From sequence record OR525701.1: a stretch of 64,000 nt of DNA; one strand, given 5' to 3'. Positions within the stretch are counted from its first letter, which is position 1. Every line of letters starts with the position of its first letter. Under the pieces are notes generated by a model. It saw only the letters and a program-made list of their open reading frames with translations. It was not told the origin of the DNA and searched no databases. A program made the translations under genes and the position numbers. Origin of the DNA: Escherichia phage vB-Eco-KMB38. Below are positions 1,640 through 53,449 of the stretch, in pieces.

Positions 1640-2196
1640 TCCAATGCTAATTTTTTAAATTGTTTTTGTTCTTTCACATTTTTTGTAACTTCTTTGAGAA
1701 ACTCATCAGTGACCATGGCCTTCAGTTCTTTAAGGACTATTGGCAACTTGTTATTTTTTTCAAGGAGCCGCTTATACTCGGTAGCATCATTCATGTTGAT
1801 TGTGTAATGTTTCATCAACAGTTTGATAACTAGTAACTCTGAAGTGTCTTCGACTAGTTTAGCCCATTTAGAGAATCGACGGCCATGTGGAATTGCCGCC
1901 ATCATATAGTTGAAGTGCGCTTCATCACTTAATTCAGAACCGACTAAGTTCATCATGTAAACAGCTGGCATACATTCTGGGAACTGGGATAATGAGTTCT
2001 CAACCATAAATTTTGAGTAGTCGACCTGAGCAATTGACATAGATTTCTTTTCATTAATAGCATTAATGATTTTAAAGAATTCATTCTCAGGTTTTTCTTT
2101 AAACATATCAGCACATTTTTGAATCGCATCAGCGTCATTAGACTTCCATGCAATTTGGTGCTCGTTAAGCCGGACGTCATCATCGAATAAGTTCAT
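1633..2196 (-). CDS. 62: clamp loader small subunit gp62
   Basis: 187 aa, ends [13 protein letters not shown] and contains [11 protein letters not shown] as in T4 gp62; position between regA and 44. Confidence 0.9.
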
Positions 2197-6805: not shown

Positions 6806-7821
6806 TGTGTTGCCTCAATATAAAGTTCGTTGGAATATTTGACCAGCGCTTCTCTGTCTTCGTCTGAGATATCTGGAATCGCGTCAATATATTCTTTAAT
6901 GATATCTTGAAGTGATTTAATCTCGATTTCCTGGTCATCATCAGATTCAACACTGTTATCAACTTTAGAAACCATACGAAGAGAGTGAACTACTTTTTCA
7001 AGTTCAGATTCAAACTTAGTCAACTCTGAATCAATTTCTGATACTATAACACGTAAGGCTAGATTAGTATAATCAGAATAATTGATTTTGCCTTTAAACG
7101 GATAAGTGATTCGTCGATGCCATGTTGTTTCATTAGGAATAAATTCCATACGTTCAACATCAGTGTCAAATACCCAGAATCCGCGCGGGTCATTCTCATC
7201 ACCTGCAGTAAGTGTCCATGGTGTCCCAATATATTTGACGTTAGCAGCTTCAGAGATTGTGTGGAAGTGGCCGGACCAGACTTGTTTATAGGTCTTTAAG
7301 AAATCAGGTTCAAGCCCATGAGACTTCATTCCTTTATAGAAATAAAAGCCGTTTAATTCCCAGTGACCAACACAATACGCGGCAGAAGAAGTCTTGATGT
7401 GCTCTAAGATTTCACCTGTATTTTCTTCACACATCCATGGAACGATATCAATCAAACATCCGCCAAAATCTACAGTAGTCGGATGCTCGTAAATAGTAAA
7501 GTTTTCAAATTGAGTTAACAATTCAGAAACAGTGTTAGGTGTTATTGTATTCTTAAACGCCATGTCATGGTTTCCTATCGTGACATGAACGTGAATGCCT
7601 GCTTTAGAAATCATATCAACGATTTCACGATTGAATTCCATTGTACGATGTGTTATTGCTTTACGGACGTCAAACCAATCGCCGTACTGAATCCAAGTTT
7701 TAATCCCGTGTTTCTTAGAGTATTCAATTGCTTGACGAATACCATCACGTTGAATATCTTGAACCCATGGGTCGTCTTGTTTGACTCCGATATGGAAGTC
7801 GCCTAAGTGCAAAATTTTCAT
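6802..7821 (-). CDS. 47: recombination nuclease gp47 (Mre11/SbcD-like)
   Basis: 339 aa, MKILHLGDFHIG and GNHD phosphoesterase motifs, close to T4 gp47. Confidence 0.9.
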   Translation of the reverse strand: MKILHLGDFHIGVKQDDPWVQDIQRDGIRQAIEYSKKHGIKTWIQYGDWFDVRKAITHRTMEFNREIVDMISKAGIHVHVTIGNHDMAFKNTITPNTVSELLTQFENFTIYEHPTTVDFGGCLIDIVPWMCEENTGEILEHIKTSSAAYCVGHWELNGFYFYKGMKSHGLEPDFLKTYKQVWSGHFHTISEAANVKYIGTPWTLTAGDENDPRGFWVFDTDVERMEFIPNETTWHRRITYPFKGKINYSDYTNLALRVIVSEIDSELTKFESELEKVVHSLRMVSKVDNSVESDDDQEIEIKSLQDIIKEYIDAIPDISDEDREALVKYSNELYIEATQ

Positions 7822-10303: not shown

Positions 10304-10332
10304 ATTATACTCTGCTCTCAAGAGTTTGTATA
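10304..10332 (-). promoter_or_regulatory. sigma70-type early promoter (copy A of a repeated about 28-bp promoter element)
   Basis: Minus strand TATACA-N17-TATAAT; element attatactctgctctcaagagtttgta recurs at 40641. Confidence 0.4.
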
Positions 10333-18895: not shown

Positions 18896-18924
18896 AATAT
18901 TTTCCTCTCGTTAAGATAGATTCA

Positions 18925-18953
18925 TTATACTCCAACCATCCTTGGTTGTAAAC
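18925..18953 (-). promoter_or_regulatory. sigma70-type early promoter
   Basis: Minus strand GTTTAC-aaccaaggatggttggag-TATAAT. Confidence 0.5.
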
Positions 18954-18957
18954 TGAT

Positions 18958-19917
18958 TTATGATTTTAATGCATTCATTGCGTTAAAAAGTTTAGAGTAC
19001 TGCAACTGGAGATTCGTTACAACACTTTGAGCATCACGAAGCTTAGCTTGTGCTTTGTCAAGTTCAACAGACAGTTGGTCTATAGTGGCCTTGATTTGAT
19101 TGTAATGGTAATCTTCGGCCGGAAGAAGGTCATTAGAAACATTTAGTTTTACTGCAGACAGTTTGCACACATTTGGCAAACCTTTAAACATTGATTTACC
19201 CGAAGTAGAATAAGCACTTAGGACTTCGGCCTGTTCAATTGGGGTTCCAGTAAGCGATGCTTCAAACAATGCATTTTCCTTTTTAAGATTTTGATAGTAT
19301 TCAGAGTCTTTGTGCCACCATGGCGCAGGAACCTTTTTACCAATAGATACACGAGCCTGGATAGCGATATTGCCCTTATTCTTGATAGGGTCGATAATAT
19401 TAAGCTCACGAGAATAAATTGCTTTAATCTGGTGGATATTATCACCTAAAACTTCCAGTGCTTGGTGGAATACACGAGCAACATTATCATTCTTAGGTTT
19501 ATATGTAAGAGTGAACTCATTCTCACTGATAACCATGATTTCTAACTTATCGTAAGTATATTTCAAATGTTTCATGTTAATTGCTTGAGGACGAATACGA
19601 GAAGCAATGGCCATCAGATTGTTAAGGTTATTTCGGAACTGTTTAGCAAAATATTGTCCGCAGCCGCCGATACAAAAATTACGAAGTTTCTGTTTGGCTA
19701 ATAAACGGCTGAACTCACCATTTTTAATGAACTCTTTAACGGGTGTGTTAGTAACGCATTCAAATTGAGTAAACATACGAGAATTAATCCCATAATATGA
19801 ACAGATTTCCTCAATCTCTTCAGGAGTCTTTACAGGCATACGGATAGGATTAGGTCCTGGAGTATATGCGTTCGAGGTAAATTCTTTGATAAGTTCTCTA
19901 CGTGTAATAAAAGCCAT
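18958..19917 (-). CDS. hypothetical protein, paralog family member 2 (C-terminal coiled coil)
   Basis: 319 aa ORF with own promoter. Confidence 0.6.
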   Translation of the reverse strand: MAFITRRELIKEFTSNAYTPGPNPIRMPVKTPEEIEEICSYYGINSRMFTQFECVTNTPVKEFIKNGEFSRLLAKQKLRNFCIGGCGQYFAKQFRNNLNNLMAIASRIRPQAINMKHLKYTYDKLEIMVISENEFTLTYKPKNDNVARVFHQALEVLGDNIHQIKAIYSRELNIIDPIKNKGNIAIQARVSIGKKVPAPWWHKDSEYYQNLKKENALFEASLTGTPIEQAEVLSAYSTSGKSMFKGLPNVCKLSAVKLNVSNDLLPAEDYHYNQIKATIDQLSVELDKAQAKLRDAQSVVTNLQLQYSKLFNAMNALKS

Positions 19918-19944
19918 TTTATATTCCTCATGTTGAAAAATTTA

Positions 19945-19971
19945 TTATACTCCAACCGTCCTTGGTTGTAC
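19945..19971 (-). promoter_or_regulatory. sigma70-type early promoter (near copy of 18925 element)
   Basis: Minus strand GTACA-aaccaaggacggttggag-TATAAT. Confidence 0.45.
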
Positions 19972-19972
19972 A

Positions 19973-20968
19973 TCATTCCTTAAGAAGTTTTACTACTTGA
20001 ATAAGATTAGCTCGTTCTGTTTTATTTTTACCGTTTAAGCCCGCTAATCGTGAGATTTCATCATCAGTCTGTTGAATAGTTACATTAAGTTCGTTAATCA
20101 AAGCTTCAAAGTATTTGATTTGCTCAGCATGTTTTGATTCAAATTTCTGAACCGGAATAACGTCTTGGTTTAGTTCATCAATAAGGTCTTTAAGAGCATC
20201 TTCTTGGTTGATATCATATTCAACTTCTTTTATTTCTTCAACGAGCTCGTCTTTATATCTAACGTCTTTTAGTCCTGGTGCTGGTCCTGAAATCTCTTCT
20301 TTAAGAGTGCAAACATATCCAATACGATATCCAGTGCCGTCTCGCTTGATATCAACTTCGTCGATAAATCCACAATGTTTGAGACCAGAGCCGATTAGGT
20401 CAAAATATCCTTGACGACGTCCTTCAAACGTTACACGAACTACTAAGACAGTTTTGCCTGCAACCTTTTGAAGCTCACATTTATAAAAGTCAGTTGAACC
20501 TGAATAACGTGGATGAGTTTTAAAGTTCATCTGACGATATATGCCCATTTGTAAACGTGCTGTTACGGCCATAAAACGTGTTTGGTTCTCGTTAAGATGA
20601 GCAACAATCCATTTCAAAGGCATTTTACACTGTTCACGACCGAACAAATCAGTACGTCCTAGATTACGCAGGATGTTGTTAGAGTTAATCATCGACAGAA
20701 CGTTAAGTTTATTCAGCGCGCTGAAGATTCCATCAGCCATTGATTTTCCGTAGCCTTTACACGCTTTAATAAGCGCTCGCGGTAGATTAGTATAGATTTC
20801 AGACGGCATATGAAAATCAAATTTACTAACCAGTAATTGATGAACTTGGATAGCAATTCGTTCATAATTAAGTGCTCTGCGATCATTATGGTCTTTAAAC
20901 CACACTTTAATCTGTGAAGCACATAAACCGTTAATTTCATGTTTTACCGCATCAGATGTAATGCTCAT
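19973..20968 (-). CDS. hypothetical protein, probable paralog family member 3 (C-terminal coiled coil)
   Basis: 331 aa ORF with own promoter. Confidence 0.6.
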   Translation of the reverse strand: MSITSDAVKHEINGLCASQIKVWFKDHNDRRALNYERIAIQVHQLLVSKFDFHMPSEIYTNLPRALIKACKGYGKSMADGIFSALNKLNVLSMINSNNILRNLGRTDLFGREQCKMPLKWIVAHLNENQTRFMAVTARLQMGIYRQMNFKTHPRYSGSTDFYKCELQKVAGKTVLVVRVTFEGRRQGYFDLIGSGLKHCGFIDEVDIKRDGTGYRIGYVCTLKEEISGPAPGLKDVRYKDELVEEIKEVEYDINQEDALKDLIDELNQDVIPVQKFESKHAEQIKYFEALINELNVTIQQTDDEISRLAGLNGKNKTERANLIQVVKLLKE

Positions 20969-21003
20969 AACTATTTCCTCAGATTGAATTGGAACTCAAA
21001 ACC

Positions 21004-21027
21004 ATTATAACCCGTCCTTGGGTAAAG
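21004..21027 (-). promoter_or_regulatory. sigma70-type early promoter
   Basis: Minus strand CTTTAC-ccaaggacgggt-TATAAT, same spacer element with covarying flanks. Confidence 0.4.
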
Positions 21028-21030
21028 CGT

Positions 21031-21558
21031 TTATGCGTGAACCGACTTTAAACGTTCTTCAAATTTCCGAAGAGTACTAATACGTTCTGCTTTCTGTTTT
21101 GTATAGTTTGCAATACGTTCTGAAGTGAGAGCGTATCGTTCGTTTACTGTTTCTTTCATGAAGTCAGGGATTTCACGAGAAGCTTTAATTTCATCAAACT
21201 TATCGAGTACTGCCTGGTCTTCAGCGATTAAATTTTCGTACATCTCGATATCTTTCTTGATAAACTCGATATCTTCCTGGGTTACTTTGGATAAACGAGA
21301 TGCTTTATCCTTTTTGTACTGCTCGTTAGTTTCACGAGACCAGAATAATGTACGTTTTTTGTTAGTGTTTTTGTAGACTTCCACAATTCCAACCGAATCG
21401 ATGATAACAATCCAATTCCAGCGAGATTTGAAAATCTGACCTCCGTCCACGGTAATCTCGTTACCATAAGCAACGTCATTAAAGAACTTGCTTTGTGCTT
21501 CAGATTTAAATTTACCGTCGTTATAATTTACCAGGTTGAAAATATCTTTAGCGTTCAT
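21031..21558 (-). CDS. hypothetical protein
   Basis: 175 aa ORF with helical C-terminus. Confidence 0.55.
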   Translation of the reverse strand: MNAKDIFNLVNYNDGKFKSEAQSKFFNDVAYGNEITVDGGQIFKSRWNWIVIIDSVGIVEVYKNTNKKRTLFWSRETNEQYKKDKASRLSKVTQEDIEFIKKDIEMYENLIAEDQAVLDKFDEIKASREIPDFMKETVNERYALTSERIANYTKQKAERISTLRKFEERLKSVHA

Positions 21559-21585
21559 GTTTTACCTCCAGTAGTTGATAGGTCT

Positions 21586-21614
21586 ATAATAACATAATCA
21601 TAGACCTTGTAAAC
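21586..21614 (-). promoter_or_regulatory. sigma70-type early promoter with inverted repeat
   Basis: GTTTAC-N17-TATTAT followed by agacctatcaac; arms aggtctat/atagacct flank the -10. Confidence 0.5.
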
Positions 21615-21616
21615 AA

Positions 21617-21904
21617 CTAAAAGAAACTTTTTTCGGTATTTTTTCCACTGAACCAAACCGACTTCGGGATTTTTTGTAATTTTTCAGATTTAAGTTTCTC
21701 TTCCTGTTCTTTCTTATACACATCCTTATCGTACTGGAGCATCTCTATGGCATTCTTTTGCAAACGATCTAAGGTAATTAAGGCTTTAGTTTTTCCTTTC
21801 AAGGAAGAGTCCTGGCGAACCTCCTCGCTATATTGCATTGTAGAACTAACCATACGATGAGCATAGAGTTCGACTGCGGCTTTAATTTTTTGCATAAAAT
21901 CCAT
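21617..21904 (-). CDS. hypothetical protein
   Basis: 95 aa ORF with aaagagga SD. Confidence 0.5.
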   Translation of the reverse strand: MDFMQKIKAAVELYAHRMVSSTMQYSEEVRQDSSLKGKTKALITLDRLQKNAIEMLQYDKDVYKKEQEEKLKSEKLQKIPKSVWFSGKNTEKSFF

Positions 21905-22042: not shown

Positions 22043-23023
22043 TTATTTCAGTAAAGTTACTTCAGAGATTTCCTCCCAACCATCTTTATCAGTTGAAATA
22101 AAATCTGCTACATAAAGAGCCGTACGTAATGACACATTGCGAAGACGAGATATGTTAGCCTTCATCCAGGACAATGCTTTATACGTTTCTGCATCCGTCA
22201 GACCACGTTTCTGCATCATGTCAGTAGATAATATTACATCTTCAACTCGAACCATAATCTCTTCATTAGAGTGTACTCCAAGGTCAAGATACACTGAACG
22301 AGATACTAAAGCTTGAAGGTGTGGAGCAAGTTTCGAACCACGTTCTAACTCTTTATCGATATCAACGTTTGTAATGAAAACGATAGTACCTTCAAACTCA
22401 AATTCTTTATCAATACCCTTATCATCAAGATAAGATGATGCAGTGCTCCAGCAAACTTTGCGTTTATCACCAGTATCTAATGCTGCTTTAAGAAGGTTCA
22501 AGATATCCATATCCGAGAATACGTCAACGTCGTCGATTAAGAGAACGCTGTCTGCATCACGGTTGAGCCAAAGTTGTTCGTAAAGGCCAATACCTGAGAT
22601 TTTACCATTAATGCTTTTGTATTTGATGAAACCGTTATCATTAGCATTATTAAGCGCTCTATCCAGAGAATACGTCTTACCAATACCGGCTGCACCTGAA
22701 ATAATGAGTGAACGAATTTTGCCATCGATAATGCCATTCGTCATCATGTTCATTACTTTAAAGCGTTTGTTGATACGAGTTTTCATATCTTCAGTGCTTT
22801 CAACAACTGCAACTGGTGATGTCTCAGCTCCTTCCATTACGATATCTGATTTGAAGACCCATACTCCACGTTCAGAACCATCAATCATAACGAAAATTTT
22901 ACCGTCACCTAAGTGGGAACATTCAGGATTAAGCTTTGCCGGGAACCAGGTCTTTGTGGCAACATAAGAACCGGAGATTTCGTTATTACGATAGATACCT
23001 TTTTTGATTTGAACGTTGAACAT
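22043..23023 (-). CDS. P-loop AAA+-type ATPase, function unknown
   Basis: Walker A GAAGIGKT, Walker B VLLIDDVD, sensor-like FITN; start set at second ATG (MFNVQ) which has a ggaga SD. Confidence 0.65.
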   Translation of the reverse strand: MFNVQIKKGIYRNNEISGSYVATKTWFPAKLNPECSHLGDGKIFVMIDGSERGVWVFKSDIVMEGAETSPVAVVESTEDMKTRINKRFKVMNMMTNGIIDGKIRSLIISGAAGIGKTYSLDRALNNANDNGFIKYKSINGKISGIGLYEQLWLNRDADSVLLIDDVDVFSDMDILNLLKAALDTGDKRKVCWSTASSYLDDKGIDKEFEFEGTIVFITNVDIDKELERGSKLAPHLQALVSRSVYLDLGVHSNEEIMVRVEDVILSTDMMQKRGLTDAETYKALSWMKANISRLRNVSLRTALYVADFISTDKDGWEEISEVTLLK

Positions 23024-23061
23024 TTTATTCTCCAATTTACTCATTTCGTTTCGATAGGTCT

Positions 23062-23090: not shown

Positions 23091-23137
23091 TACTTTTTAA
23101 AAATATTTTGACCCCCTAAAGGGCCCGAAGGCCCTTA

Positions 23138-24127
23138 TCATTTATAGTATGAATTGTGGTTTTCTAAGTAGACTTGCTCAAGGAAGTCATCCCAGAAACT
23201 CATATCTACTTTTTGCTGCATACCGTTCTTAGCAGCTTGTTCTGCCGCATGTTCAACTTGGTCAACGATATCTTCTAGGAATTCTTGTACAGTTTTAAAT
23301 GTATGTTTACCAAGCTTAACATCGAGAATAAATGGAGCATCCTTAAGCGGGTAAACCAGGTCGCCGGTTTTGTAAATTTCTAAGAGCTGAAGTCCACCAC
23401 GGCATGCATGACTCAATGCTTTCCAATCAATACCTTCATTGGCTTCTGCCTTACGAGCACGTTCACCGTAGTTCTCTTCAAGTTTAACCAGGATGGCATT
23501 GAACTCTTTATTGGTTAACGTATCTTGGAATTTACGGTCCAACAGACTATAGAATGTTTGCTTACCTGTTTTCTCGTTTTCAGTTTCAACCCATGAAGCA
23601 AATTCACCTACAGGCAGAACATTCTTCATATGTGATAAACGAATTACTGCACCATTATCAAAGTATTGTCCCCATTCATTAGAACGTTTAAGGGCTTGGC
23701 GGAGAACAGCCAGACGAGAACCCTTGACACCGTATTTAGAAGCTTGCTTACGGACGTACCCTAAATAAGATTTCATGTTAGTGGTATAGAAACGAGACCT
23801 GTTATCTTGAATATACTTCCATACATCAGGCAAATCAGATTTAACTACTAGACTTGGTGGAGTGTGAAGCATATCTAATGCGACGGTTTCACCATCTGCA
23901 GCTAGTTTAAAGAAATATTTGAGACTATACAACTCGTGGTCAATATCATCTTTAGTGTTTTTAGATGATGTGTTATTCGTGTTCTTGCTCATGTGTTCTT
24001 TAACATTACCGGTCAAGATATCACGAGCGTGAGGGACATAAATTTCTTTAAAATCGACGTCAGATTCAGGAGTAGACGTTCCATAAAGGTGGCTACCAAA
24101 GTAGCCTTTCATAATTGTTTTCATCAT
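23138..24127 (-). CDS. Pol-beta-superfamily nucleotidyltransferase-fold protein, function unknown
   Basis: N-terminal GSHLYGTSTPESDVDF (G-S...D-x-D) then ALDMLH acidic strand and helical C-terminal half; ATGA stop-start overlap with upstream membrane ORF. Confidence 0.6.
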   Translation of the reverse strand: MMKTIMKGYFGSHLYGTSTPESDVDFKEIYVPHARDILTGNVKEHMSKNTNNTSSKNTKDDIDHELYSLKYFFKLAADGETVALDMLHTPPSLVVKSDLPDVWKYIQDNRSRFYTTNMKSYLGYVRKQASKYGVKGSRLAVLRQALKRSNEWGQYFDNGAVIRLSHMKNVLPVGEFASWVETENEKTGKQTFYSLLDRKFQDTLTNKEFNAILVKLEENYGERARKAEANEGIDWKALSHACRGGLQLLEIYKTGDLVYPLKDAPFILDVKLGKHTFKTVQEFLEDIVDQVEHAAEQAAKNGMQQKVDMSFWDDFLEQVYLENHNSYYK

Positions 24128-25318: not shown

Positions 25319-25483
25319 TTTACCATACTCGCTTCAATAAGATTCACTATGCCGTTTACCATGTTATAAGTAAACATTGGATAATTGTATTGTACTACAA
25401 CATAAGCGATAAGCAAAAGTTTCATTTTGTTCTCCATTTGTTTTTGGTAGGACTACTATAACACAGTCCTACCAAGATGTAAA

Positions 25484-25717
25484 CTACCGATTGTGTTTTA
25501 AATGTTGATAAAGTTCTTCAACTTGTTTAGGGTCCAAAACAATTAAGTCATTTTCTTGACGAAGATAAATCCATCCCTTATCCCCAGGACCATTTTTACA
25601 AAACATCACCACCGTATCATCATCTTCAGCGCTTTCAGGTAAAAGTTCAAGTACACCGTCTTCAGATTTTCCAGTATAATCGTAAAGCATAATATCCTCA
25701 CATAATCTCGTTAACAT
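25484..25717 (-). CDS. hypothetical protein
   Basis: 77 aa ORF downstream of a promoter at 25455-25484. Confidence 0.45.
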   Translation of the reverse strand: MLTRLCEDIMLYDYTGKSEDGVLELLPESAEDDDTVVMFCKNGPGDKGWIYLRQENDLIVLDPKQVEELYQHLKHNR

Positions 25718-36505: not shown

Positions 36506-36531
36506 AATATTCTCCTCAAGTTGATAGGACT

Positions 36532-36561
36532 ACTATAACATAGTCCTATAATTGTGTAAAC
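36532..36561 (-). promoter_or_regulatory. sigma70-type early promoter with inverted repeat around -10
   Basis: GTTTAC-N18-TATAGT; arms ataggacta/tagtcctat flank the -10. Confidence 0.5.
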
Positions 36562-36573
36562 AGTTTTGTGAAG

Positions 36574-37810: not shown

Positions 37811-37826
37811 TTAATTTGATAGGACT

Positions 37827-37856
37827 ACTATAACATAGCCCTATCTTGTTGTAAAC
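37827..37856 (-). promoter_or_regulatory. sigma70-type early promoter with inverted repeat
   Basis: GTTTAC-N18-TATAGT-agtcctatc; spacer atagggcta pairs with downstream tagtcctat. Confidence 0.45.
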
Positions 37857-37860
37857 TGTT

Positions 37861-38058
37861 TTAGCAAGAATAACTAGACGATACCCAGCCTTGAACAGTA
37901 ATGCTATTATTAGATAATGAGATTGCGTTCTGGAGATTCAGACCTGCGTTATCTTCAATCCATAATGTAACTTCTTCGCGTTCTTCTGTTGCAATTTGGA
38001 ACAGGTTTTCCAGGGCAGCTACTGCCGTACGTACAGCACAATCTAATTCACGAGACAT
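37861..38058 (-). CDS. hypothetical protein, family ending W-V-S-S-S-x-x-C (member 1)
   Basis: 65 aa, ends GWVSSSYSC. Confidence 0.5.
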   Translation of the reverse strand: MSRELDCAVRTAVAALENLFQIATEEREEVTLWIEDNAGLNLQNAISLSNNSITVQGWVSSSYSC

Positions 38059-40640: not shown

Positions 40641-40670
40641 ATTATACTCTGCTCTCAAGAGTTTGTAAAT
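40641..40670 (-). promoter_or_regulatory. sigma70-type early promoter (copy B of the repeated element)
   Basis: ATTTAC-N17-TATAAT; 27 of 28 nt identical to 10304-10332. Confidence 0.4.
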
Positions 40671-41108: not shown

Positions 41109-41138
41109 TTTGTTTACTCCTCTGTAGTTGATAAGTCT

Positions 41139-41166
41139 ATAGTATCACCATCCTTGGTGCTTGTAC
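41139..41166 (-). promoter_or_regulatory. sigma70-type early promoter
   Basis: GTACAA-gcaccaaggatggtga-TACTAT-agacttatcaac. Confidence 0.4.
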
Positions 41167-41176
41167 ATCGTTATTT

Positions 41177-41482: not shown

Positions 41483-41510
41483 AACATTTTCCTCTGCGGT
41501 TGATAAGTCT

Positions 41511-41539
41511 ATAGTATCATGTCCTTAGAAGAAGTAAAC
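41511..41539 (-). promoter_or_regulatory. sigma70-type early promoter
   Basis: GTTTAC-N17-TACTAT-agacttatcaac. Confidence 0.45.
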
Positions 41540-41571
41540 ATCTTTATGAAATATTTTTATGCCCTAGATAC

Positions 41572-42821: not shown

Positions 42822-42896
<75 letters not shown>

Positions 42897-42902
42897 AATA
42901 TA

Positions 42903-42976
42903 TGACCCAGACCAGATTCGAACTGGTAACCTTTCCCTTATGAGGGGACTGCTGCTAACCGTTGAGCTACAGGGCC
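42903..42976 (-). tRNA. tRNA with anticodon CAT (Met, or Ile2 if lysidine-modified)
   Basis: GGCCCTGTAGCTCAACGGTTAGC...CCTCATAAGG...ACCAG-TTCGAAT-CTGGT; anticodon loop CTCATAA; D-stem pairing imperfect by hand. Confidence 0.6.
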
Positions 42977-44432: not shown

Positions 44433-44446
44433 TTGTTTTGATAGGA

Positions 44447-44478
44447 CTACTATAACATAGTCCTATCGTGTTGTAAAC
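44447..44478 (-). promoter_or_regulatory. sigma70-type early promoter with inverted repeat
   Basis: GTTTAC-N18-TATAGT; arms gataggacta/tagtcctatc. Confidence 0.5.
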
Positions 44479-44481
44479 TAC

Positions 44482-44769
44482 TTACAGAAGAGTTTTTGCA
44501 ATAATTTTAAGCTGAGCTACAGAAATATGCTTAGCTTTAAACAGTGCAGTCTCTTCAGCCGGAGAGATAACAATAGTAGCGCCATCTTTCTTAGCAGACC
44601 ATCCATCCCCTAAGTAAACAGTACCTTTTACTTCTTCACCATCAACCAGACTAATCATTGGTTTACCCTCACGTCCTTTATTTGTTTTAATAACTTCAGA
44701 AGTAAGGGATGCTTCGGTCAGAGTAGAAACGTTAGCAACAGGTGATATAAATTCTTTATAGGTTTTCAT
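44482..44769 (-). CDS. internal protein (CTS MKTYKEFISP), T4 ipI position
   Basis: 95 aa with CTS N-terminus located just upstream of 57B as ipI is in T4. Confidence 0.6.
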   Translation of the reverse strand: MKTYKEFISPVANVSTLTEASLTSEVIKTNKGREGKPMISLVDGEEVKGTVYLGDGWSAKKDGATIVISPAEETALFKAKHISVAQLKIIAKTLL

Positions 44770-44803
44770 TTTATTTCCTTGAGGCTGTTTATTTGATAGG
44801 ATG

Positions 44804-44832
44804 ATAGTAACACACCATCATCCTTATGTAAA
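44804..44832 (-). promoter_or_regulatory. sigma70-type early promoter with inverted repeat
   Basis: GTTTAC-N17-TACTAT; arms aggatgat/atcatcct. Confidence 0.45.
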
Positions 44833-44846
44833 CTGTTTTGTGAAAA

Positions 44847-48923: not shown

Positions 48924-50656
48924 TGGAAATGATTAGCAGTAGCCTTAATTGGTTCGTGGGTGTTGTCGAGGACAGAATGGACCCATTAAAACAAGGGCGA
49001 GTTCGAGTTCGAGTCGTTGGTCTTCATCCGGCACAGAGAGCACAAGGTGACGTACAAGGTATTCCTACAGAAAAACTTCCGTGGATGACTGTTATTCAAC
49101 CTATTACGTCTGCGTCAATGTCAGGTATTGGTGGTTCTGTTACAGGTCCTGTTGAAGGAACTCGAGTATATGGTCATTTCTTAGACAAATGGAAAACAAA
49201 CGGTATTGTACTCGGTACATATGGTGGAATTGTACGCGAAAAGCCTAATAGACTCGAAGGTTTTTCCGACCCTACAGGTCAATATCCACGGCGTTTAGGT
49301 AATGATACGAACGTATTAAACCAAGGTGGCGAAGCTGGTTATTATTCGAACTCTAACGTAATTCAAGATAACAACTTGGATTATGGTATAAACCCAGACG
49401 ATACAGATTTAGCAAATATTCCAGAAGATGATGACCCTAATTTTACAATAACAGAAATGTTACGTCGTGACGAAGGTCTTCGTGATAAAGTGTATTGGGA
49501 CCATCTCGGGTATCCTACAGTAGGTATTGGACACCTTATCGTAATGGAAAAGACCCGAGACATGTCTCGAATTAATAAATTGTTATCCGATCAAGTAGGG
49601 CGTGAAGTAACAGGAAATCCGGGAACTATTACATTAGAAGAAGCAACAGCGTTATTTGAGAAGGACCTTGCTAAGATGCAGAAAGACATTCGTTCTAATT
49701 CTAAAGTAGGTCCTGTTTATGCTAAAATGAACAGATCTCGCCAAATGGCATTAGAAAACATGTGCTTCCAAATGGGCGTTGGTGGTGTAGCAAAATTCAA
49801 TACTATGCTTAAAGCAATGGCCGAAGGTGATTGGAAAACTGCATACAAATCTGGGCGCGATTCATTATGGTTCCAACAGACTAAAGGACGCGCTTCACGT
49901 GTAACAACAATTATTTTAACCGGTAACATGGAATCATATGGTGTTCCTGTTAAAACACCGCCTTCACCAGGAGTTGGTGCTGATTTAGTTACTAGAAATA
50001 CCGATCCAGACGACCCGGCAGGTCCTCCTGTTCCATTAGATTCACGCATCCTTTTTAAAGAACCAGAATCAAGTTATCGCGGTGAATACCCGTATGTTCA
50101 TGCTATGGAAACAGAAAGTGGTCATATCCAAGAATTTGACGATACTCCAGGTAATGAACGTTATCGCTTAGTTCATCCAACAGGGTCATATGAGGAAGTT
50201 TCTCCGTCTGGTCGTCGCACTCGTAAAACTGTAGAAGACCTTTTTGACATCACTAATGGTGATGGGAATTTCCTGGTTTCTGGTGATAAACTTGTTAACG
50301 TTGGTGCTAACGAAATATATTATAACATGGCGGACCGCCTCCATCAAATAGACGGCAATGACACAATCTTTATTCGTGGCAACCAAGTTAAAACTGTTGA
50401 AGGTGATGGAACTCTTTACGTTAAGGGCAATATCAAAATAGTCGTTGACGGGAATGCAGATATTCTTGTTAAAGGTGATGCTAAGACTCAAGTTGAAGGG
50501 AATCATGACTATACTGTCAATGGTAATGTTAAATGGACTGTCAATGGTAATGTTGATATGACTGTTGCTGGCAATTGGTCGGAGACAATGACTACAATGA
50601 GCTCAATAGCTTCAGGACAATATACTGTTGACGGATCTCGTATTGATATTGGGTAA
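48923..50656 (+). CDS. 5: baseplate hub / tail lysozyme gp5
   Basis: 577 aa, N-terminal OB domain, central T4-lysozyme-like domain (EGLRDKVYWDHLGYPTVGIGHL) and C-terminal VxGxxxxx beta-helix repeats. Confidence 0.92.
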   Translation: MEMISSSLNWFVGVVEDRMDPLKQGRVRVRVVGLHPAQRAQGDVQGIPTEKLPWMTVIQPITSASMSGIGGSVTGPVEGTRVYGHFLDKWKTNGIVLGTYGGIVREKPNRLEGFSDPTGQYPRRLGNDTNVLNQGGEAGYYSNSNVIQDNNLDYGINPDDTDLANIPEDDDPNFTITEMLRRDEGLRDKVYWDHLGYPTVGIGHLIVMEKTRDMSRINKLLSDQVGREVTGNPGTITLEEATALFEKDLAKMQKDIRSNSKVGPVYAKMNRSRQMALENMCFQMGVGGVAKFNTMLKAMAEGDWKTAYKSGRDSLWFQQTKGRASRVTTIILTGNMESYGVPVKTPPSPGVGADLVTRNTDPDDPAGPPVPLDSRILFKEPESSYRGEYPYVHAMETESGHIQEFDDTPGNERYRLVHPTGSYEEVSPSGRRTRKTVEDLFDITNGDGNFLVSGDKLVNVGANEIYYNMADRLHQIDGNDTIFIRGNQVKTVEGDGTLYVKGNIKIVVDGNADILVKGDAKTQVEGNHDYTVNGNVKWTVNGNVDMTVAGNWSETMTTMSSIASGQYTVDGSRIDIG

Positions 50657-50659
50657 TAT

Positions 50660-51175
50660 ATGGCACAAATACTTCCTTTAAATACCGACTTAGGAGAAGA
50701 CATGGAAGGGGCGTCTATTAACGTCCTTTTTACTCCACAGTTAGAAACAACCGAAACTTTAGTGTCAATAAATATAACAGATTATGAACCAACACAAGGC
50801 ATTACTGTAGATGGTAATCGTTTATATGGAACATATGAAAGTGTGTTTAGCTTTTCTTCGGATGCATTGAAATACCGATTAAATGATGATTTTGAAACCG
50901 CATCTTCATGGGATGATTTACCAAAAGATGAATCAACACAGTTATATTTGTGGAGAGCTCCTCAGAATCTTCGTAAAGTGTTTAGTTATACGGTTGAAAT
51001 GATTTATAACCACCAAGAAGAAAGTTCATCAGGCGGTTCTAGAAGTGACTCTGGTGTAGAACCTCCACCGGCTCCAGTACAAAAAACTCTTACTAAGGTT
51101 TATACAAAAACTATAGTAGGAAATTGGAGCAAATGGGCTCATCAATTACGAAACTATGTTTATGCGAGGCCATAA
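50660..51175 (+). CDS. 5.1: gp5.1-like protein
   Basis: 171 aa ORF between 5 and 5.4. Confidence 0.6.
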
Positions 51176-51478: not shown

Positions 51479-53449
51479 ATGGCAAACACTCCTGTAAATT
51501 ATCAATTAGCCAGAACAGCGAATGCTATTCCCGAGATTTTTATCGGTGGTACATTTGCCGAAATCAAACAAAACATTATCGAATGGCTCAATGGGCAGAA
51601 TGAATTTCTTGATTATGATTTTGAAGGTTCACGTTTAAATGTATTGTGCGACCTTTTAGCATATAACACTCTTTATATCCAACAGTTCAGTAATAGTGCA
51701 GTGTATGAAAGCTTTATGCGTACTGCTAACTTGCGCAGTTCCGTTGTACAAGCGGCGCAGGATAATGGATATCTGCCTGCATCTAAATCAGCAGCACAAA
51801 CAGAAATTATGCTCACATGTACGGATGCATTAAATAGAAACTATATCACTATTCCACGTGGTACTCGTTTCCTGGCGTATGCTAAAGGTACTTCTGTAAA
51901 TCCATATAACTTTGTTTCCACCGAAGACGTCATTGTAGTTAAAGACAAAAATAATCAATATTTCCCACGTCTTAGGTTAGCTCAGGGACGTATTGTTCGT
52001 ACTGAATTAACATTTGATAAATTAAAACCTATCATTATTCGTGATAAGAACATTGACCGTAATTTGGTTAAATTGTATGTTGACGGAGCAGAATGGATTA
52101 ACTGGACTCGCAAATCGATGGTTCATGCTGGTTCTACTTCAACCATTTATTATATGCGAGAAACTGTTGACGGGAACACTGAATTTTATTTTGGTGAAGG
52201 TGAAATCTCTATTAACACATCAGAAGGTGCTTTAACATCCAACTACATTGGTGGCCTTAAACCTGTCCAGGGTTCTAAAATCGTAATTGAATATATTTCT
52301 ACTAATGGTGCTGAAGCAAATGGTGCAGTAGGATTCTCTTATGCTGATACATTAGCTAATATCACAGTTATTGGAATTAATGAAAACCCAAGTAATAACC
52401 CTGACTTCGTTGGTGCGGATGGCGGTGGCGACCCTGAAGATATTGAACGTATCCGTGAATTAGGTACAATTAAACGTGAAACTCAACAACGATGTGTGAC
52501 TGCGACAGATTACGACACATTCGTCTCTGAACGATTTGGTTCTATTATTCAAGCGGTTCAGACATTTACAGATTCATCTAAGCCTGGGTACGCATTTATT
52601 GCTGCTAAACCTAAGTCTGGGTTATATTTGACTTCCGTCCAACGAGACGATATTAAAAATTATCTTAATGAGTATAACTTAGGGACGATAACTCCTGTTG
52701 TTATTTCTCCTGATTATTTGTTTATTAAAATGAATATTCGCGTTACGTATGCATTGAACAAATTACAGGAATCTGAACAATGGTTAGAAGGCCAAATTAT
52801 TAATAAAATCGACCGGTATTATATTGAAGACGTGGAAATTTTTAACTCGTCATTCGCAAAATCTAAAATGCTAACGTATGTCGATGACGCAGATATTTCT
52901 ATCATTGGTTCGTCTGCGACTATTCAAATGGTTCGCGAGGTACAGAACTTCTACAAAACACCTGAAACAGGTATTAAATACAATAACCAGATTAAAGATA
53001 GAACATTAGAATCTAACGTGTTTTCATTTGATAGTTTACGCGTTGACCCTGAAACAGAAGCTACTATTAAATATGACGTTCGCATTGTAGGTTCAGATAG
53101 AAATGACCGTGGCATTGGACAAGTTATCATTGGTCCGTTTGCAGATGGCGACGTTATAGAAAATGCTTATATTCAACCATATACTGGTGACGATTTTAAT
53201 AAACTTCATGTTACGGACGGAAGAAACAAATATTACTCTATAGGTGAAGTAAATTATCCGGCTGATTCAATTTATTGGAATATAGCTAAAATTGATTTAA
53301 CTTCTGATAGGTTTGAAGTTCAAACTATTGAACTCTATTCAGACCCAGCTGATGATGTTATCTTTACTAAAGACGGGTCGTTAATTGTATTTGAAAATGA
53401 CTTACGTCCGCAATATTTAACCATAGATTTGGAGCCTATTTCACAATGA
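51479..53449 (+). CDS. 6: baseplate wedge protein gp6
   Basis: MANTPVNYQLARTANAIPEIFIGGTFAEIKQN..., near-identical to T4 gp6; start at the MANTPV Met. Confidence 0.92.
   Translation: MANTPVNYQLARTANAIPEIFIGGTFAEIKQNIIEWLNGQNEFLDYDFEGSRLNVLCDLLAYNTLYIQQFSNSAVYESFMRTANLRSSVVQAAQDNGYLPASKSAAQTEIMLTCTDALNRNYITIPRGTRFLAYAKGTSVNPYNFVSTEDVIVVKDKNNQYFPRLRLAQGRIVRTELTFDKLKPIIIRDKNIDRNLVKLYVDGAEWINWTRKSMVHAGSTSTIYYMRETVDGNTEFYFGEGEISINTSEGALTSNYIGGLKPVQGSKIVIEYISTNGAEANGAVGFSYADTLANITVIGINENPSNNPDFVGADGGGDPEDIERIRELGTIKRETQQRCVTATDYDTFVSERFGSIIQAVQTFTDSSKPGYAFIAAKPKSGLYLTSVQRDDIKNYLNEYNLGTITPVVISPDYLFIKMNIRVTYALNKLQESEQWLEGQIINKIDRYYIEDVEIFNSSFAKSKMLTYVDDADISIIGSSATIQMVREVQNFYKTPETGIKYNNQIKDRTLESNVFSFDSLRVDPETEATIKYDVRIVGSDRNDRGIGQVIIGPFADGDVIENAYIQPYTGDDFNKLHVTDGRNKYYSIGEVNYPADSIYWNIAKIDLTSDRFEVQTIELYSDPADDVIFTKDGSLIVFENDLRPQYLTIDLEPISQ

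Follow-up and report, generated by a model that had tools for sequence, protein, structure and literature searches.

The window analysed here is the whole 64,000-nucleotide (nt) stretch of Escherichia phage vB-Eco-KMB38 (OR525701.1), an RB69-like T-even phage (Mosigvirus, Straboviridae) with ~96-98% identity to RB69-like phages and 100% identity to Escherichia phage PTK over the tested stretch. Four promoters of this window contain a mini-hairpin between their upstream element and the -10 hexamer, in which a stem of 4 base pairs (bp) encloses the loop AAGGAY. The genes run on the minus strand, and the finding is situated in the nrdC.x hyperplastic region; this region varies among relatives, reaching at least 80% coverage in only 130 of 647 records, and an orthologous counterpart of promoter 1 is annotated in phage NBG1. 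The hairpins, their promoters and the GGA triplets in the Shine-Dalgarno (SD) regions of the genes behind them are listed below, with positions of the window and with protein lengths in amino acids (aa).

18934-18947, minus strand: hairpin 1, AACC-AAGGAT-GGTT (5 bp if 18933/18948 are included), in the promoter spacer of a 314-aa gene
19954-19967, minus strand: hairpin 2, AACC-AAGGAC-GGTT (5 bp with 19953/19968), in the promoter spacer of a 319-aa gene
21010-21023, minus strand: hairpin 3, ACCC-AAGGAC-GGGT, between a MotA-box-like sequence and the -10 in the promoter of a 331-aa gene
41146-41159, minus strand: hairpin 4, CACC-AAGGAT-GGTG, in the promoter spacer of a 54-aa gene
18924-18952, minus strand: promoter 1, TTTACA-17-TATAAT, early type, full sequence TTTACAACCAAGGATGGTTGGAGTATAAT
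19944-19972, minus strand: promoter 2, TGTACA-17-TATAAT, early type, full sequence TGTACAACCAAGGACGGTTGGAGTATAAT
21004-21032, minus strand: promoter 3, AAACGCTTTA-N13-TATAAT, full sequence AAACGCTTTACCCAAGGACGGGTTATAAT
41139-41167, minus strand: promoter 4, TGTACA-17-TACTAT, full sequence TGTACAAGCACCAAGGATGGTGATACTAT
18903-18905, minus strand: GGA in the SD region of the 314-aa gene, 36 nt 3' of the loop GGA, a possible second contact for the RNA-binding protein CsrA
19925-19927, minus strand: GGA in the SD region of the 319-aa gene, 34 nt 3' of the loop GGA
20976-20978, minus strand: GGA in the SD region of the 331-aa gene, 39 nt 3' of the loop GGA
41118-41120, minus strand: GGA in the SD region of the 54-aa gene, 33 nt 3' of the loop GGA

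An earlier note on this DNA had described sites 1-3 as a paralog array served by three promoters of one kind, and both parts of that description have to be given up. The genes downstream of these sites are mutually unrelated, with no BLASTP match below E = 0.1, and they fall into three different PHROGs and into different or no Pfam families (the 319-aa gene belongs to DUF7235). Sigma-70-type promoters with 17-nt spacers are present at sites 1, 2 and 4, whereas site 3 is MotA-box-like and has no -35 element at the right distance; there, AAACGCTTTA stands 13 nt from TATAAT, with C replacing the consensus T of the MotA box. The consensus of MotA-dependent middle promoters is (a/t)3TGCTTtA-N11-13-TAtaAT (PMC1524935), and promoter 3, which resembles it, is regarded as a putative middle promoter. 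The four mini-hairpins themselves, as reported in the note, are all present and all on the strand of the genes, at the places given there apart from start or end limits that were 1-3 nt off. CCAAGGAYGG occurs four times in the window against 0.06 expected, and a 4-bp stem accompanies only 4 of the 69 AAGGAY sites; all four of these stem-bearing sites fell in intergenic promoters and none in coding sequence, which answers the refuting condition set in the note. Minimum-free-energy folds of all four intergenic RNAs include the hairpin, with local folding energies (dG) of -4.9 to -6.9 kcal/mol (hairpin 1, -6.9, z -3.3; hairpin 2, -6.2, z -3.1; hairpin 3, -4.9; hairpin 4, -5.7, z -3.4). A search of Rfam at the sites, using gathering thresholds as well as a permissive E-value, returned no match. 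A function as terminators was rejected, as the hairpins have no U-tract and were not called by a terminator scan.

The compensatory change of the stems, first noticed among the four copies in the window, was confirmed and extended with relatives. The T-even element was collected from the whole T4 genome, from JS98 and from T-even contigs of IMG/VR, a search for relatives with the 175-aa neighbour protein yielding eight loci, and the alignment comprises 17 distinct T-even promoter variants, three imperfect ones included. In this alignment 95.6% of the stem cells are paired, as against 58.4% in shuffles (0/500 shuffles), and the covariation score is 0.93 as against 0.17, with slid controls only 24-49% paired. 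Pairs 1-3 each occur as four to five base-pair types, and the stems found are AACC, ACCC, AGCC, ATCC, CACC, CCAC, TACC and TATC, together with TTCC/GGAG (U.G) and AGGC/GCTT (G.U). The AAGGA of the loop is invariant (17/17) and is followed by U, C or A as the sixth base; the closing pair is C-G in 15 of the 17 variants. T4 (NC_000866) contributes the following five hairpins.

2435-2448: CCAC/GTGG, before rIIA.1
49893-49906: AGCC/GGCT, before nrdC.3
50950-50963: CCAC/GTGG, before nrdC.4
53336-53349: TACC-AAGGAT-GGTA, before nrdC.7
167057-167086, minus strand: promoter between denB and ndd.6, holding the variant UACCAC-AAGGACC-GUGGUA with a 6-bp stem and a 7-nt loop (z = -3.4)

Double changes are seen directly between orthologous positions: site 1 of the window has AACC/GGTT where T4 nrdC.3 has AGCC/GGCT, and site 3 has ACCC/GGGT where T4 nrdC.7 has TACC/GGTA, with indels in both arms. 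Taken together, the pattern of substitutions indicates that the hairpin is a selected base-paired structure.

Imperfect forms of the element were also encountered. In the nrdC.3 promoter of one T4-like IMG/VR contig (L123), the closing pair is broken (AGCC..AGCT) and the -10 is degraded (TACAAA), so that hairpin and promoter seem to decay together. In two further promoters of the window, AAGGA is present in the spacer without the mini-stem, namely at 41500-41545 (minus strand; TTCT-aaggac-ATGA) and at 44795-44840 (minus strand; AAGGATGAT), where it forms the left arm of a long hairpin; these promoters may hold the element in a decayed or an alternative form.

Whether the element acts as RNA or as a site in DNA can be approached from its geometry and strand asymmetry. 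The distance between the stem and the -10 ranges from -2 (overlap) to +5 nt, that is, over 7 nt; the wobble (G.U) pairs in the stems of intact promoters are all on the sense strand; and the non-palindromic AAGGA loop is on the sense strand in all T-even hairpins (4/4 in the window, 5/5 in T4). A protein-binding site in duplex DNA, one of the possibilities raised in the earlier note, is unsupported because the arms change with pairing kept, the distance to the -10 varies, and both wobbles and loop are sense-specific. On comparative grounds, the best reading of the element is an RNA hairpin, and the suggestion made in the same note that it operates in read-through transcripts is the one that best fits the evidence.

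A role at the DNA level would make the hairpin a spacer element, or a site for a DNA-binding protein, that tunes or shuts off the promoters, or else merely the core of a promoter cassette kept alike by recombination. The hairpin is indeed always within a promoter, in T-even and in other phages, and the shut-off of T4 early promoters is not understood. In T4-type phages, promoter-early stem-loop (PeSL) cassettes (Arbiol 2010, Comeau 2014; PMC2839356, PMC4122927) are described as carrying stem-loops just upstream of the promoter that attenuate upstream transcription and mediate recombination, and these cassettes recombine in hyperplastic regions (PMC2839356, PMC4122927). The present element resembles them in joining a sigma-70-like early promoter (of the PeSL type, TTTACW-N17-TAYWAT in the T4 group) to a stem-loop in a hyperplastic region, between small or unknown genes, and in having copies at several loci that are alike enough to recombine; near-identical promoter copies of 27-30 nt stand at separate loci both in the window (sites 1/2) and in T4 (promoters 2458/50973). 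PeSL loops, however, are variable and their stems, such as G(n)...C(n) or AGNA...TCNT, are described as terminators or attenuators, whereas the mini-hairpin has an invariant AAGGAY loop, is inside the spacer, comprises 4-5 bp and, lacking a U-tract, is not terminator-like. Cassette copying by gene conversion cannot yield nine different stems around one loop, and arm covariation that preserves pairing, together with a varying phase and strand-specific orientation and wobbles, is not expected of a duplex site. A function in DNA is, in our judgement, distinctly unlikely.

Two DNA-structural candidates were rejected. In coliphage N4, small hairpins are part of early promoters: the virion RNA polymerase, a single-subunit enzyme, uses promoters that are DNA hairpins with 3-nt loops and without -35/-10 hexamers. 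An N4-type hairpin promoter was discarded on the size of the hairpin and on the canonical sigma-70 or MotA-type hexamers. Cruciform extrusion was discarded as well, both because a stem of 4 bp and a loop of 6 nt are too small for it and on the canonical hexamers.

Being upstream of the start site of its own promoter, the hairpin can be present only on transcripts from upstream promoters. T4 early transcription is polycistronic, and read-through RNA is assumed here for that reason. Read-through across the sites is plausible: a co-oriented gene ends 5-17 nt before every one of the four sites, and no terminator-like site was found on the minus strand between 21600 and 17950. The stop-to-ATG intergenic regions are nearly filled by the promoter and, because they measure just 61-74 nt including stop and start codons, the spacer is practically the only unconstrained sequence in them. 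Further upstream, at ~23110-23136, a GC-rich hairpin (GGGCCTTCGGGCCC) with a UUCG-type tetraloop on the minus strand is placed between two minus-strand genes; it is terminator-like on both strands and, in the neighbourhood of the array, the one strong candidate for a stop of transcription from upstream.

The invariant core of the hairpin, C-A-A-G-G-A-Y-G, corresponds to the CsrA/RsmE consensus CANGGANG, a match that had been overlooked in the earlier note. The RsmE consensus is (A/U)CANGGANG(U/A), and that of Escherichia coli CsrA, obtained by systematic ligand evolution by exponential enrichment (SELEX), is RUACARGGAUGU (PMC6692469). In the phage hairpins, GGA occupies loop positions 3-5 on a short, covariation-backed 4-bp stem, and the A at loop position 1 and the C-G closure (15/17) also agree with the CsrA/Rsm consensus; T4 CCAC-AAGGAU-GUGG includes ACAAGGAUGU. 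A stem of 4-6 bp, closure by C-G and an A before the loop GGA are shared with the CsrA/RsmA hairpins of the sponge RNAs CsrB, CsrC and RsmZ and of the leaders of repressed mRNAs (glgC, hcnA). The loop of RsmZ hairpin 2, AAGGAU, bound by RsmA with a Kd of 264 nM (PMC3791407), is identical to the phage loop AAGGAU, which fits the SELEX motif ARGGAU too. In the csrB sequence of E. coli K-12, fetched for comparison, the repeat units form N3-4-C-AGGA[U/C/A]-G-N'3-4 hairpins (ACACC-AGGAT-GGTGT and CTCC-AGGAT-GGAG are examples), and one GTC-AAGGAT-GAG occurs in addition; GGA is followed there by U, C or A, which holds for the phage hairpins too, and hairpin 4 equals the CsrB unit CACC-AGGAT-GGTG plus one loop A. 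The differences are that CsrB units mostly have the pentaloop AGGAU whereas the phage hairpins have a hexaloop, that the phage has one hairpin per intergenic region rather than ~20 in one small RNA, and that, unlike the sites in Csr/Rsm RNAs, the phage hairpin is inside a promoter spacer, upstream of the start site, and is not part of the local transcript. CsrA encoded by the phages themselves was searched for with an approximate query sequence, which gave no match in T4, the window or the fetched loci, and the reader would therefore be the CsrA of the host. Some other phages encode CsrA homologues (PMC11879866). CsrB is unusually stable during T4 infection (PMC9697503) and csrA knock-down has a broad fitness effect under phage attack (PMC7553319), both of which are compatible with reading by CsrA.

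We give a probability of roughly one half to the reading that read-through transcripts, early or middle, carry the hairpin and that host CsrA clamps it there, either bridging it to the SD GGA or being held by it as by a decoy. The 17-nt spacer encodes the C-G-closed 4-5-bp stem with the hexaloop A-A-G-G-A-Y, and only polycistronic early mRNA that started upstream and reads through would carry it; as C-AAGGAY-G is a CsrA recognition motif, host CsrA dimers would be expected to clamp it. In one form of this reading, CsrA would bridge the hairpin and the GGA in the SD 33-39 nt downstream, which is present at all four sites of the window, and bridging would damp translation or alter decay of the next cistron on read-through transcripts, thereby insulating tandem units. 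In the other form, the hairpins would draw CsrA away, as decoys, from the numerous ribosome sites with GGA in phage mRNAs. The folding of the read-through RNA in vivo, its binding by CsrA and the consequences of binding are what we infer here.

The same hairpin recurs in phages unrelated to T4. An earlier pattern applied to viral contigs, CCAAGGAYGG..TATAAT, gave mostly chance matches, with weak stem enrichment outside the T4-likes (10/76 vs 4.75 expected, P = 0.02), and was replaced by a sense/antisense design, in which IMG/VR was scanned for consensus promoters TTGACA..C-AAGGAT-G..TATAAT with C-ATCCTT-G as the antisense control. At least three further Watson-Crick pairs were present in 6 of 29 distinct sense promoters (0.45 expected, P = 5e-6), and at least two further pairs in 8 of 29 sense promoters vs 0 of 13 antisense ones (Fisher P = 0.036). 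The contigs bearing hairpins are of 363 kb (L022, L191), 102 kb (L059, L178), 71 kb (L163, L211) and 160 kb (L171). In L163 (IMG/VR 3300044568_002742), 17 consensus promoters are spread over 5.2 kb, all preceding small co-oriented open reading frames (ORFs), and 11 of the 17 have 4-7-bp spacer hairpins, where 0.22 would be expected by chance. Their loops are ACGGAU, AAGGAU, AGGGAC, AUGGAC and AAGGAC: A1 and GGA are constant and, with one exception, so is the closing C-G, loop position 2 can be any of the four bases, and U.G wobbles are in the sense orientation in 2 of the 11 hairpins. As judged from the motif, this is exactly the loop pattern that the CsrA consensus predicts. It is tentatively proposed, as something that may well turn out otherwise, that decoy hairpins of the CsrA type have been placed in early-promoter spacers by large virulent phages whose several lineages are unrelated (T-even phages, a jumbo phage of 363 kb, and uncultured phages of 71, 102 and 160 kb), to be carried by read-through transcripts only.

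The other six promoters of L163, all on the plus strand, have spacers of the form agt(a/g)gtaattacc with GTAATTAC-like palindromes. These resemble a duplex operator, and the spacers of this phage may serve two kinds of signal.

1904-1932, plus strand: palindrome promoter of L163
2862-2890, plus strand: palindrome promoter of L163
3083-3112, plus strand: palindrome promoter of L163
4314-4342, plus strand: palindrome promoter of L163
5136-5164, plus strand: palindrome promoter of L163
6002-6030, plus strand: palindrome promoter of L163

The loops of L163 argue against two other readers of an RNA hairpin, since an SD mimic needs contiguous AGGA and the phage endoribonuclease RegB needs GGAG/U. 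RegB, with or without ribosomal protein S1, would cut the loop GGA in read-through early transcripts and spare those from the local promoter. RegB cuts GGAG/U in intergenic regions of early mRNA, and on its own it cleaves small RNAs if the GGA is unpaired, with the next base constrained (PMC3014915). The phage hairpins share with the RegB sites of T4 early mRNA an intergenic place, early transcripts and an exposed GGA; regB is widespread in T-even phages, RB69 included, and most T-even loops are GGAU followed by the G of the stem. GGAG is also found directly 3' of the stem at sites 1 and 2 (18930-18933 and 19950-19953, minus strand; GGAGUAUAAU), a partial match to the RegB/S1 consensus GG*AGRAYARAA that could be a RegB cut site in read-through RNA. 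Strong RegB sites, however, are the SD itself, GGAGRAYARAA, whereas the phage hairpins present GGAU/C/A without the A-rich tail, their 3' sequence being stem and then GGAG/TATAAT; five of the 17 T-even variants have GGAC or GGAA, and the hairpins of unrelated phages have mostly GGAC. The conserved loop A1 and A2 and the closing C-G are, moreover, not known determinants of RegB. The nuclease site offered in the earlier note is possible but weakened, and we think it improbable that RegB is the reader.

An RNA hairpin could also have some other reader or a structural role: it could mimic an SD and hold the 30S subunit, protect the AU-rich RNA of the promoter against RNase E, or alter RNA polymerase pausing at -10-like sequence. 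AAGGA can pair with the 3' end of 16S rRNA, and ~40% of T-even early promoters have other, longer hairpins around the -10, where hairpins in read-through RNA seem generally favoured. A purely structural role leaves the invariant loop unexplained, and mimicry of the SD is contradicted by the AUGGAC, ACGGAU and AGGGAC loops found elsewhere and by the 36-41 nt that separate the loop from the ATG. The SD-like ribosome site raised in the earlier note is weakened by the same points: an SD stands 5-12 nt before a start codon, and every downstream gene already possesses one, 10-12 nt ahead of its ATG. This group of explanations is considered unlikely.

That the hairpin has no function at all, being a chance or historical resemblance that derives from one ancestral cassette and whose quasi-palindromes are kept perfect by template-switch mutation, appears very improbable to us. 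The promoters are indeed related cassettes, and templated correction of quasi-palindromes is documented in T4. A fixed loop beside fully variable stems is not accounted for in this way, and neither is independent occurrence in unrelated phages, with different loops and with enrichment over the antisense control.

Several points weigh against the reading in which host CsrA clamps the hairpin. The candidacy of CsrA as the reader of the loop comes from the motif, and the invariance of the loop within a genome could partly reflect copying of promoter cassettes (window sites 1/2; T4 2458/50973). If RNA alone matters, a location only in spacers has to be explained by the lack of other free space or by a role restricted to read-through transcripts. 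A GGA in the SD region is present in 51 of 68 promoters without the hairpin vs 7 of 8 with it, and bridging gains no specific support from the second GGA because it is equally common in hairpin-less promoters; for the decoy form, ~4-5 such hairpins per T-even genome are few for a sponge. No such hairpin was seen within 10 kb in more distant T4-like phages retrieved through NrdD, whose hosts are of the same kind, and the non-T4 contigs, compared by BLAST with cultured phages, yielded neither relatives nor a host assignment.

The mini-hairpin belongs with the known CsrA-type GGA hairpins and with PeSL cassettes, and its placement in a spacer is unusual. Literature searches on CsrA with T4, with phage mRNA and with sponges retrieved no prior account of the hairpins or of a link between CsrA and T4 mRNA; to our knowledge, no host RNA-binding regulator is known to read T4 early mRNA, and early-gene shut-off is only partly explained. 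The recurrence in unrelated phages suggests an undescribed phage route to the host Csr system, and a hairpin resembling a CsrA site offers a connection, open to direct testing, of a lytic phage with the Csr network of its host. If this holds, it would amount to a device, general among phages, for recruiting or titrating host Csr, insulating tandem units or freeing GGA-rich ribosome sites, and one that has gone unseen in T4 itself for decades. It would also suggest a general design rule, by which tightly packed genomes can use promoter spacers to encode RNA signals, and a warning for annotation that "neutral" spacers can be under RNA-level selection.

Other hairpins are common at promoters of this type. 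Highly significant hairpins (z < -2) accompany 14 of 37 GTTTAC-type promoters in T4 and 7 of 16 in the window; the majority are long, at 8-15 bp, and have one arm, the left, within the spacer and the other just past the -10, and their arm sequences differ between promoters. Hairpins with the AAGGA loop make up 2 of the 14 T4 cases (promoters 167086 and 50973). The long ones are probably PeSL stem-loops. Promoter hairpins of this kind are at the following places in the window.

44795-44840, minus strand: long promoter hairpin
44440-44485, minus strand: promoter hairpin
37818-37863, minus strand: promoter hairpin, with G.U in the sense orientation
36523-36568, minus strand: promoter hairpin
25446-25491, minus strand: promoter hairpin
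21577-21621, minus strand: promoter hairpin

Two promoters of the window 30 kb apart, at 10304-10332 and 40641-40669 (minus strand), have the identical 17-nt spacer aactcttgagagcagag and a matching arm after the -10, and the T4 promoter at 7215 is similar to this pair; they look like copied promoter cassettes. The genes just upstream of the array, at 22043-23044 and 23138-24127 (both minus strand), show weak AAA-ATPase/HTH matches and a match to the RlaP nucleotidyltransferase family (PF10127, 4e-13). Two tRNA genes are found at 42823-42896 and 42903-42976 (minus strand), with Rfam RF00005 scores of 71 and 52 bits.

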